Counted from the stretch's first letter, positions 52,601-55,600 are shown. The stretch is 64,000 nucleotides of DNA from Escherichia coli (GCF_050320075.1 NZ_CP190018.1), one strand, 5' to 3'. Program-made: the numbers.

Positions 52601-55600
52601 GCCCGACGATTATGATGCCGGGCCACGGTCACGGGCATATGGAACACAGCAACTGGCGGATGATTAACTTGCCGGTTGGCCCGTTGGTGGACGGCAAACC
52701 GATTTATACGCTCTACATCGCGCTTTCGATCGATTTTCATCTTCATTACATAAATGATTTGATGAATAAACTTATTATGACCGCATCGATCATCAGCATC
52801 CTGATCGTCTTTATCGTGCTGTTGGCGGTACATAAAGGTCACGCACCGATCCGCAGCGTCAGCCGTCAAATCCAGAACATTACCTCGAAAGATCTCGACG
52901 TTCGCCTTGACCCGCAGACCGTGCCGATTGAGCTGGAACAGCTGGTACTGTCGTTCAACCATATGATCGAGCGTATTGAGGATGTCTTTACTCGCCAGTC
53001 CAATTTCTCAGCGGATATCGCTCACGAAATTCGTACACCAATTACGAATCTCATAACGCAAACCGAAATCGCCCTCAGCCAGTCACGCAGCCAGAAGGAG
53101 CTGGAAGATGTGCTCTACTCTAATCTCGAAGAGCTGACGCGAATGGCGAAAATGGTCAGCGATATGCTGTTTCTCGCCCAGGCCGATAACAACCAGCTAA
53201 TCCCCGAAAAGAAAATGCTCAACCTGGCGGATGAAATCGGCAAAGTGTTCGATTTTTTCGAGGCGCTAGCGGAAGATCGCGGCGTGGAACTGCGGTTTGT
53301 TGGTGACGAGTGTCAGGTTGCGGGCGATCCGCTGATGCTGCGTCGGGCGTTAAGCAACCTGCTTTCGAACGCCCTGCGTTATACGCCGCCCGGAGAGGCG
53401 ATTGTAGTGCGCTGCCAGACGGTCGATCACCAGGTGCAAGTTTCCGTCGAAAACCCCGGTACGCCCATTGCGCCCGAGCACTTACCGCGATTGTTTGACC
53501 GTTTCTACCGCGTTGACCCCTCCCGCCAGCGAAAAGGCGAAGGTAGCGGTATTGGGCTGGCGATAGTGAAATCGATTGTTGTCGCGCATAAAGGCACGGT
53601 TGCAGTAACGTCAGATGCTCGGGGGACAAGGTTTGTGATTATGCTGCCGGAGAGAGAGTGATTATTAAGTTCAAATTCAGGGCGTGGTGCATCACCTCCT
53701 GGTATTGTTGATCAACAAATTAGAGAAAAACTTATTAAACATATGAAATATCGAAGGCTTTTATTTTTCAAAGTTTCACGAGATGTTTGTATATGAAACT
53801 TAGTTAAATCTGTGTTTCTTCCAATTGTAGATCACAATGCCCTTTCTAAATTTTCATCGTTATAAACAAGCCATCTATCATATAAAGCAATGAATAATTT
53901 AATCGCGATTAATCATCATTAATTGTTATATTATTCACTCAATCTATTTATCAAGTGAATTTGATAAATTCCTAATTTAAAATATCCACTATTGAGCCAG
54001 TATTTAACAACGTTAAGATGTGCAATGTGCAGATCATGTTATCAGGGTGGAGCGGTAGCATATATTTCTTATGCAATCATTCATTTTAATAATGTTAATT
54101 GGATTATTTATTGCTGTGAATAAAAATATATTATGAATATTGGTTTAACTTTGCGTTTTTGTTACTCGTTGTGATATGCGTACCTGTCCTGAATAACGCC
54201 AAGAAACAAGAGGTTGAGCTTGTGATTATTTTTTTGACTGAACAGACACCCGTTTCTGTAAAGTAATATTTAAACAAAATTCTCACATAACCATAGCATT
54301 TTCTGTTCCTTCCCTAATAACGTCTGAAGTCGTCCCGCTTATCACATTATCCGCAGTTGTACGGTACGGATCATTATTCATTTTACTGGAGGTTGCTATG
54401 TCAACCGGATTACGTTTCACACTGGAAGTGGACGGCCTGCCGCCGGATGCTTTTGCGGTGGTTTCCTTTCATCTGAACCAGTCACTCTCTTCGCTCTTTT
54501 CCCTCGATCTCTCCCTGGTCAGCCAGCAGTTTCTCTCCCTTGAATTTGCGCAGGTGCTGGACAAAATGGCCTACCTGACGGTATGGCAGGGCGATGACGT
54601 ACAGCGCCGGGTGAAAGGCGTGGTGACCTGGTTTGAACTCGGGGAGAACGACAAAAACCAGATGCTGTACAGCATGAAGGTGCACCCGCCGCTGTGGCGT
54701 GCCGGTCTGCGCCAGAACTTCCGTATCTTCCAGAACGAGGACATCAAAAGCATCCTCGGCACGATGTTGCAGGAAAACGGGGTGACCGAATGGAGTCCGC
54801 TGTTCAGCGAGCCGCATCCTTCCCGTGAGTTTTGTGTCCAGTACGGTGAGACTGATTACGATTTCCTGTGCCGGATGGCGGCGGAGGAAGGCATCTTCTT
54901 TTATGAGGAGCATGCTTACAAAAGTACCGACCAGAGCCTGGTGCTGTGCGACACAGTCCGCCATCTGCCCGAATCTTTTGAAATCCCATGGAACCCGAAC
55001 ACCCGTACCGAGGTGAGCACCCTCTGCATCAGCCAGTTCCGCTACAGCGCACAAATCCGCCCTTCTTCCGTGGTGACCAAAGACTACACCTTTAAACGCC
55101 CCGGCTGGGCCGGACGTTTTGAACAGGAAGGCCAGCACCAGGACTACCAGCGCACGCAGTATGAAGTGTATGACTACCCCGGACGTTTCAAGGGTGCCCA
55201 CGGGCAGAACTTTGCCCGCTGGCAGATGGACGGCTGGCGAAACAATGCAGAAACCGCGCGGGGAATGAGTCGCTCGCCGGAGATATGGCCGGGACGACGA
55301 ATTGTGCTGACGGGGCATCCGCAGGCGAACCTGAACCGGGAATGGCAGGTGGTGGCAAGTGAACTGCACGGCGAACAGCCACAGGCGGTGCCAGGACGGC
55401 AGGGAGCGGGGACGGCGCTGGAGAACCATTTTGCGGTGATCCCGGCAGACAGAACATGGCGACCACAGCCGTTGCTGAAACCGCTGGTCGACGGCCCGCA
55501 GAGCGCTGTCGTGACAGGACCGGCAGGCGAGGAAATCTTCTGCGACGAACATGGTCGCGTGCGGGTGAAGTTCAACTGGGACCGCTATAACCCGTCAAAC

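Follow-up and report, generated by a model that had tools for sequence, protein, structure and literature searches.

The stretch analysed here, which we call the window, comprises 64,000 nucleotides of Escherichia coli DNA (NZ_CP190018.1). In it, the stop codon of cusS ends at position 53661 and the ATG of vgrG begins at 54398, according to the RefSeq annotation of a locus that is 100% identical across the spacer to our 1301-nt query (cusS end, spacer and vgrG start). The first-pass annotation had described the intervening 736 bp (53662-54397) as a non-coding, strongly AT-rich spacer with many A/T tracts; its coordinates are exact and the description holds, as the GC content is 31.5% (0.315) and the spacer contains 12 homopolymeric A/T tracts of at least 4 nt and 29 W-runs of at least 6 nt. 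The mean GC content is 0.530 for the window and 0.530 for all 736-bp windows (sd 0.056), placing the spacer 3.8 sd under the latter mean. This is the minimum for that size in the window, and the 0.025% of 736-bp windows with equally low GC each overlap the spacer. The query is 100% identical to many complete E. coli genomes, and at least 80% of it is present in 2634 of 5426 genomes.

The ORFs of the spacer reach at most 51 amino acids, and none of its ORFs of 15 amino acids or more is intact across all diverged alleles. The best Rfam match to the spacer reached only E=0.07, no terminator-like site was found in it, and folding of the conserved module described below predicted no consistent hairpin. 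An sRNA or structured leader was rejected, given that there is no Rfam family, terminator or covariation and that the fold z-score is -0.54. Among 40 PGAP-annotated records listed, nothing is annotated in the spacer except an IS1 transposase, in two of them. The first-pass annotation had held that a conserved small gene or sRNA would speak against its reading; the search by ORF conservation, Rfam, structure and terminator found neither.

To the left, the homology to island-free genomes ends within cusS. In K-12 MG1655 and CFT073 the spacer is absent and cusS is followed by 149 bp and nfrB, the empty site reading GGTTTGT TATCAyATTACCCGCTTAA TCCTTCAG CAAACGGCAAC. Divergence from these genomes begins 25 nt before the cusS stop, the homology ending after GGTTTGT at 53636, and the last eight codons of cusS in the window are a diverged allele, VIMLPERE* (53637-53661, + strand), instead of VITLPA* in K-12 and CFT073. 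The longer tail (482 aa) accompanies the island in all three island-bearing alleles examined; in island-free K-12 and CFT073 the protein has 480 aa and the empty sites are identical. A junction segment at 53662-53684, assigned to neither strand, is common to all island-bearing alleles, and its TTCAG (53676-53680) is also found at the K-12 and CFT073 empty site and may be the original junction. The island boundary had been thought probably to lie inside the spacer; alignment to K-12 and CFT073 moves it to 53636/53637, in the cusS tail, or at the latest to 53680. Because homology to island-free genomes stops there, the whole spacer is, as judged from these alignments, essentially island DNA, the boundary coinciding with its first bases or lying slightly further left. 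In L001, a genome ~99% identical across 53637-64000, the right junction, CATTCTACG joined to CAAACGGCAAC, lies 13,273 bp further on, directly after an ISEc1 transposase. The island occupies the site between cusS and nfrB and is ~13.3 kb long in that genome; about half of E. coli genomes carry it. As the first-pass annotation had reported, the marks of a classical integrative island are missing: no tRNA was found in the whole window, and neither an integrase nor flanking direct repeats at the two junctions. The ISEc1 transposase near the nfrB end is the sole mobile-element gene of the island.

Downstream of the spacer, on the + strand, lie vgrG (54398-56299), a gene for a DcrB-related/EagR-type chaperone (56327-56788), rhs (56808-61640), an ORF of 236 aa (61663-62373) and an orphan rhs/toxin fragment that continues past the window end at 64000. 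The island comprises modules for vgrG, EagR-type chaperone, rhs, immunity and orphan toxin, and the spacer is the 5' non-coding control region of this accessory type VI effector island of ~13 kb. GC content falls a second time at ~61300-62400 (~33%), across the 3' tip of rhs and the ORF that follows; a variable Rhs toxin tip and its immunity module would be expected to look like this. A third low-GC stretch (~10750-11400, ~35%) is distant from the spacer.

Alignment of spacer alleles and paralogues divides the spacer into four parts. After the junction segment comes a distal AT-rich segment (53685-53915, no strand), which is locus-specific and single copy and was found in 2801 of 5426 genomes; in the O157-type allele, ~53685-53842 of it are absent. 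It contains a perfect 14-bp palindrome, TTGTTGATCAACAA (53705-53718), whose counterpart in the diverged FDA497 allele, TTATTTATCAATAA, shows one compensating pair. In some genomes (H31, H46) an IS1 has entered this distal part; in strain D5 (L142) it lies 5' of the conserved module, with a 9-bp target duplication at 53870-53878.

The third part is a conserved module of ~150 bp (53916-54065, + strand), common to the yncH-linked (RhsE) and ansP-linked vgrG/effector loci, and the fourth is a divergent AT-rich 5' leader (54063-54397, + strand) of 335 nt that is 71-74% identical to the paralogous leaders. One block within it, with TTGACT (54234-54239), is better conserved, and the leader also holds the vgrG Shine-Dalgarno sequence GGAGG (54388-54392). 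Together, 53916-54397 are ~78% identical to the leader of the yncH-linked vgrG at the RhsE locus. In K-12, what is left of that leader lies 5' of the rhsE pseudogene, and this yncH-rhsE spacer is a paralogue with 79.8% identity over 426 bp. Over the full length of the spacer, a rarer, FDA497-type allele at the same cusS locus shows only 75.6% identity.

The first 1.5 kb of vgrG (54398-55897) are 97.9-99.5% identical between cusS-linked and yncH-linked copies (L006, L005), whereas 3' of the box discussed below the leaders of the two loci share only 71-74% identity. This difference suggests, from sequence comparison, that the coding part of vgrG has been gene-converted between the loci. The window allele has lost the promoter predicted by SELEX in K-12 (TTGACT-17-TATTAC) through an 11-bp deletion, and the PhoB site reported 5' of K-12 rhsE (PMC10294691) is not conserved in it. 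Plasmid matches proved to be chromosomal fragments.

Within the module we noticed a core, GTGCAGAT-N5-TATCAGGGTGG-AGCGGTAGCATA (54027-54062), which is also present in Superficieibacter. Its 5' portion holds the invariant boxes GTGCAGAT and ATCAGGGTGG (54027-54050, + strand), separated by 5 nt in the window and by 13 nt in Superficieibacter; its 3' portion is an ops-like element. In the ansP-linked arrangement (VCSW5, Escherichia sp. E1V33 and E. whittamii) only ~53945-54062 is common, followed by different cargo: genes for an HExxH protein and a lipoprotein, which are probably an effector/immunity pair, and then vgrG. Two of these variants (L007 5403-6286; L011 6262-7145) encode an HExxH protein of 176 aa and a lipoprotein of 118 aa; E. 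whittamii (L010 10911-11636) has a 241-aa lipoprotein instead, in a sequence that stops before any vgrG. A Pfam search with the HExxH protein and the lipoproteins gave no match. A scan of 100,044 species representatives with TATCAGGGTGGRGCGGTAGC returned only E. whittamii, Escherichia sp. E1V33 and Superficieibacter electus. In S. electus the core alone is alignable and the neighbouring genes are unrelated; it lies (L009 3860-3906, minus strand) 3' of ynbABCD-like genes and 5' of small ORFs without Pfam match, and no T6SS genes were found in the 11.6 kb of this sequence. A metagenome search with a pattern that left every third-codon position of the 20-nt box free gave 120 hits, in which the box occurs in two variants only.

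The DNA upstream of GTGCAGAT is unrelated in CFT073 and in metagenome contig L089, the join falling precisely at GTGCAGAT. In 11 contexts whose flanks are barely alignable, GTGCAGAT, ATCAGGGT, GCGGTAGC and a T two bases on are invariant. A TAnnAT hexamer (TAAGAT, TAAAAT or TATGAT) stands 6-7 nt 5' of GTGCAGAT in 11 of the 11 variants, its position being kept even where the DNA further upstream is unrelated. In the window this hexamer belongs to a sigma70 promoter predicted by position-weight matrix, TTGAGC-16-TAAGAT (53992-54019, + strand), with a predicted transcription start at ~54026-54027. The 24 nt at 54027-54050 show zero substitutions between alleles that differ at three positions of ops.

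The ops-like element itself, AGCGGTAGCATA, lies at 54051-54062 on the + strand (non-template, sense), with the core GCGGTAG and T11 intact and an expected pause at 54061. The ops consensus in the literature is GGCGGTAGCGTG. Compared with the 12-nt consensus GGCGGTAGnnTG (core CGGTAG at positions 3-8, and T11), the window element is identical at positions 2-9 and 11 and differs at three of the 12 (1, 10 and 12). At positions 10 and 12 it has the bases of the RfaH-bound kps ops, GGCGGTAGCATA, and position 1 is the single difference between the two; A at this position is not among validated sites. The pause-promoting G12 is replaced by A at 54062, and the RfaH-bound kps and c1882 sites likewise have A. 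Bases 3-8 are required for RfaH binding to a small hairpin of the non-template strand (C3:G8) (Zuber et al. 2018). T11 and G12 drive the ops pause; in vitro, G12C abolished the U11 pause but not recruitment, and in reporters all single substitutions except G2C reduced RfaH stimulation (Zuber et al. 2018). Because of this last result, the window allele (A1, A12) may be weak. The RhsE-type and FDA497-type leaders carry GGCGGTAGCGTA and the ansP-type leaders GGCGGTAGCGTT.

The element is oriented in the vgrG sense, 336 nt 5' of the ATG, no conserved ORF runs across it, and at least 9.6 kb of closely spaced, co-oriented + strand genes of an island absent from K-12 and CFT073 follow it up to the window end. 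The 10-mer GCGGTAGNNT occurs three times in the 64-kb window compared with 1.5 expected; it is not rarer than chance, and what supports an ops here is therefore its conservation, its strand and position, and the homology to a validated site. We found no paper in a literature search that describes ops at the cusS-linked vgrG-rhs locus.

The validated homologue lies in CFT073, a strain without the cusS-linked island. There GGCGGTAGCGTA at 1715753-1715764, 313 nt 5' of c1882, is among eight RfaH ChIP-seq loci (Hustmyer et al. 2022, PMC9765446). This ops was RfaH-bound in a Δhns ΔstpA strain and H-NS-bound genes surround it, while the kps ops GGCGGTAGCATA was RfaH-bound in wild-type CFT073 (Hustmyer et al. 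2022, PMC9765446). The gene c1882 encodes a PAAR protein and precedes vgrG, GTGCAGATCATGTcATCAGGGTaGGGCGGTAGCGTA lies upstream, and the surroundings of the ops are homologous to the window core. The two leaders share the core GTGCAGATCATGT.ATCAGGGT.G.GCGGTAGC.TA, a TAnnAT hexamer 6 nt 5' of it and an ops ~310-340 nt before the first gene, and both head an AT-rich T6SS accessory island with vgrG downstream, H-NS binding being an observation made in CFT073. They differ in location, c1882 being on the ansP/yncG side and the window locus at cusS-nfrB, and the sequence on either side of the core is unrelated. The ops alleles differ as well: GGCGGTAGCGTA there, with RfaH binding by ChIP-seq, and AGCGGTAGCATA here, a predicted site. 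Farther along the CFT073 PAAR-vgrG island, a further ops-like sequence, GGCGGTAGTTTA, is intergenic (L133 13031; CFT073 record 1726030).

Like the JUMPstart/ops leaders of waaQ (rfaQ), rfb/wzx, wza and kps (RF01707), the window leader has a 12-nt ops on the non-template strand; the operons behind those leaders are long, horizontally acquired and H-NS-bound. In both, ops is also closely preceded by a CAGG(G) run, and a (CA)GTGC motif stands ~26 nt upstream. Unlike them, the window module has neither the GGTAGCTG repeat nor the CUGGU/GCCAG hairpin. We took as JUMPstart the 38-nt RF01707 consensus with a 5-bp hairpin directly 5' of ops and a score above 35 bits. The window at 53950-54150 gave no RF01707 match at E<=10; as controls, the rfaQ, wzx, wza and kpsM leaders scored 53-60 bits and the hly, c4518 and tssH ops sites 17-18 bits. 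Without such a match and without a consistent hairpin, the ops of the window stands in a non-JUMPstart context. A link of ops to type VI secretion genes is known from ops1, between hcp and clpV/tssH in the sci1 cluster of EAEC and at CFT073 tssH. In EAEC, control of this core T6SS cluster by RfaH and ops was demonstrated by ops and rfaH mutagenesis, and at CFT073 tssH RfaH control is supported by ChIP (Hustmyer et al. 2022, PMC9765446). However, ops1 lies inside the core cluster, with a consensus ops and other flanks, while the window site heads an orphan vgrG-rhs island.

A xenogeneic origin of the spacer had been proposed by the first-pass annotation, and it is borne out by absence from K-12 and CFT073, presence in ~2800 of 5426 genomes and a GC content of 31.5% compared with 53%. 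The same annotation saw in it DNA typical of H-NS binding. Here the AT-rich, xenogeneic character is established, and the link to H-NS itself comes by analogy, through the K-12 yncH-rhsE spacer. One study (PMC3946193) lists that paralogue as bound by H-NS and, from in vitro binding of the holoenzyme, as an RNA polymerase-sigma70 SELEX site, and the paralogue falls within an H-NS ChIP region (PMC10294691). The window spacer resembles this silenced K-12 leader in its low GC content and its absence from some strains, H-NS binding being a property of the K-12 leader. By analogy with that spacer and with the neighbours of CFT073 c1882, H-NS would be expected to bind at the cusS-linked locus too. 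The module contains TTGATAAATT (53961-53970), which agrees with the H-NS high-affinity motif TCGATAAATT at 9 of 10 positions; the window holds seven such matches compared with 3.8 expected, so that the match in the module is not significant alone.

Together, we consider it probable that the spacer supplies the long vgrG-eagR-rhs operon with an H-NS-silenced promoter and an RfaH antitermination leader. Composition, junction, conserved module, the ops match with its strand and position, and homology to the RfaH-bound site were computed directly; we infer where transcription starts at the cusS-linked locus, that H-NS occupies it and that its expression depends on RfaH. By extension from the paralogues, H-NS and StpA would coat the AT-rich DNA and keep promoter and operon silent. 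Transcription would start at ~54026-54027 from TTGAGC-16-TAAGAT, and RNA polymerase would meet ops (AGCGGTAGCATA) ~25-35 nt later. Its pause there would expose a small hairpin of the non-template strand, C54053:G54058 with the loop GGTA, allowing RfaH to load onto the paused polymerase. The RfaH-modified polymerase would then exclude NusG and Rho and resist H-NS filaments, resulting in read-through of the long operon.

Three other readings were weighed against an RfaH leader. The spacer might be plain xenogeneic AT-rich DNA with a promoter and H-NS binding, its ops-like 12-mer being decayed or a chance match and functionless at this locus. The frequency of the core 10-mer, the three of 12 positions off consensus and the reporter data, in which nearly every ops base matters, agree with this. 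However, alleles whose downstream leaders are only 71-74% identical agree at nine of the 12 positions, among them every base contacted by RfaH, and over the 24 nt upstream, and the changes at positions 10 and 12 are shared with the RfaH-bound kps ops; we regard a functionless 12-mer as unlikely. The box could also encode part of a short leader peptide (MCRSCYQGGAVAYISY in the window, frame TAT CAG GGT GGA GCG GTA GCA) that regulates the operon by itself or through its translation. In the Escherichia, Superficieibacter and L089 contexts an in-frame ATG does precede the box by 3-8 codons, and in this frame neither substitution in the 20-nt box changes the amino acid. Yet the ATG is AGG in E. whittamii, CFT073 has the non-synonymous changes TAT>CAT and GGG>AGG with ops kept, and the C-terminal parts differ wholly in length (15 to 39 aa) and sequence. 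Moreover, no gene is annotated at the box among the RefSeq records listed, and none of the seven third-codon positions varies between genera or in the 120 metagenome hits, an invariance that indicates constraint at the nucleotide level and is better explained by ops. A small ORF in the YQGGAVAY frame, open in most variants, was rejected as the main explanation for its lost start, non-synonymous changes and variable C-termini, and we hold a regulatory peptide to be very improbable.

The box might instead be the operator of a dedicated DNA-binding regulator, a sigma54-type promoter, or a site-specific recombination site marking the 5' end of the island. These proposals fit the sharp end of inter-locus homology at both box edges, the GG-N10-GC spacing read directly within GGGTGGGGCGGTAGC and the better conservation of the upstream boxes than of ops. 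But the sigma54 match is poor (T-26, C-23, A-22, C-21 and T-14 are lacking), the box shows no dyad symmetry, no second or inverted copy was found elsewhere in the window and no recombinase gene nearby, and the similarity to dif is weak. In addition, the RfaH-bound homologue already accounts for the 3' half of the box, and this group of explanations appears very unlikely. Judged by eye only, sigma54 promoter, CRP, Fur, RcsAB, CusR, PhoB and dif-like readings of the box and nearby palindromes were all poor matches and were set aside.

RfaH loading alone does not explain why the boxes are conserved more strictly than ops. We note a further, rather unlikely extension of the RfaH leader, in which the promoter, the GTGCAGAT/ATCAGGGTGG boxes and ops together make up a portable unit of ~60 bp marking the 5' edges of T6SS effector islands; this unit would double as a recombination anchor for swaps of cargo and upstream DNA and carry a second signal. 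The anchor is suggested by homology that breaks exactly at both edges (CFT073, L089, the ansP-linked loci and Superficieibacter), and the second signal by the stricter conservation of both upstream boxes; it could correspond to a regulator devoted to initiation, or else contribute additionally to RfaH loading or to the pause.

The interpretation given by the first-pass annotation is thus largely right as far as it goes, but it is incomplete, having missed the conserved cis-regulatory module with ops. RfaH-controlled, H-NS-silenced leaders are already known, the sister locus included; what is added here is the cusS-linked vgrG-rhs leader. Its ops (54051-54062) offers a mutable 12-nt target for activation of silent Rhs effectors, and the natural alleles AGCGGTAGCATA and GGCGGTAGCGTA at one locus allow their strength to be compared. 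If RfaH counters H-NS here as at the CFT073 sister locus, orphan Rhs toxin islands would join LPS, capsule, hemolysin and the core T6SS in the RfaH regulon, and interbacterial toxin delivery would be tied to the same anti-silencing switch.
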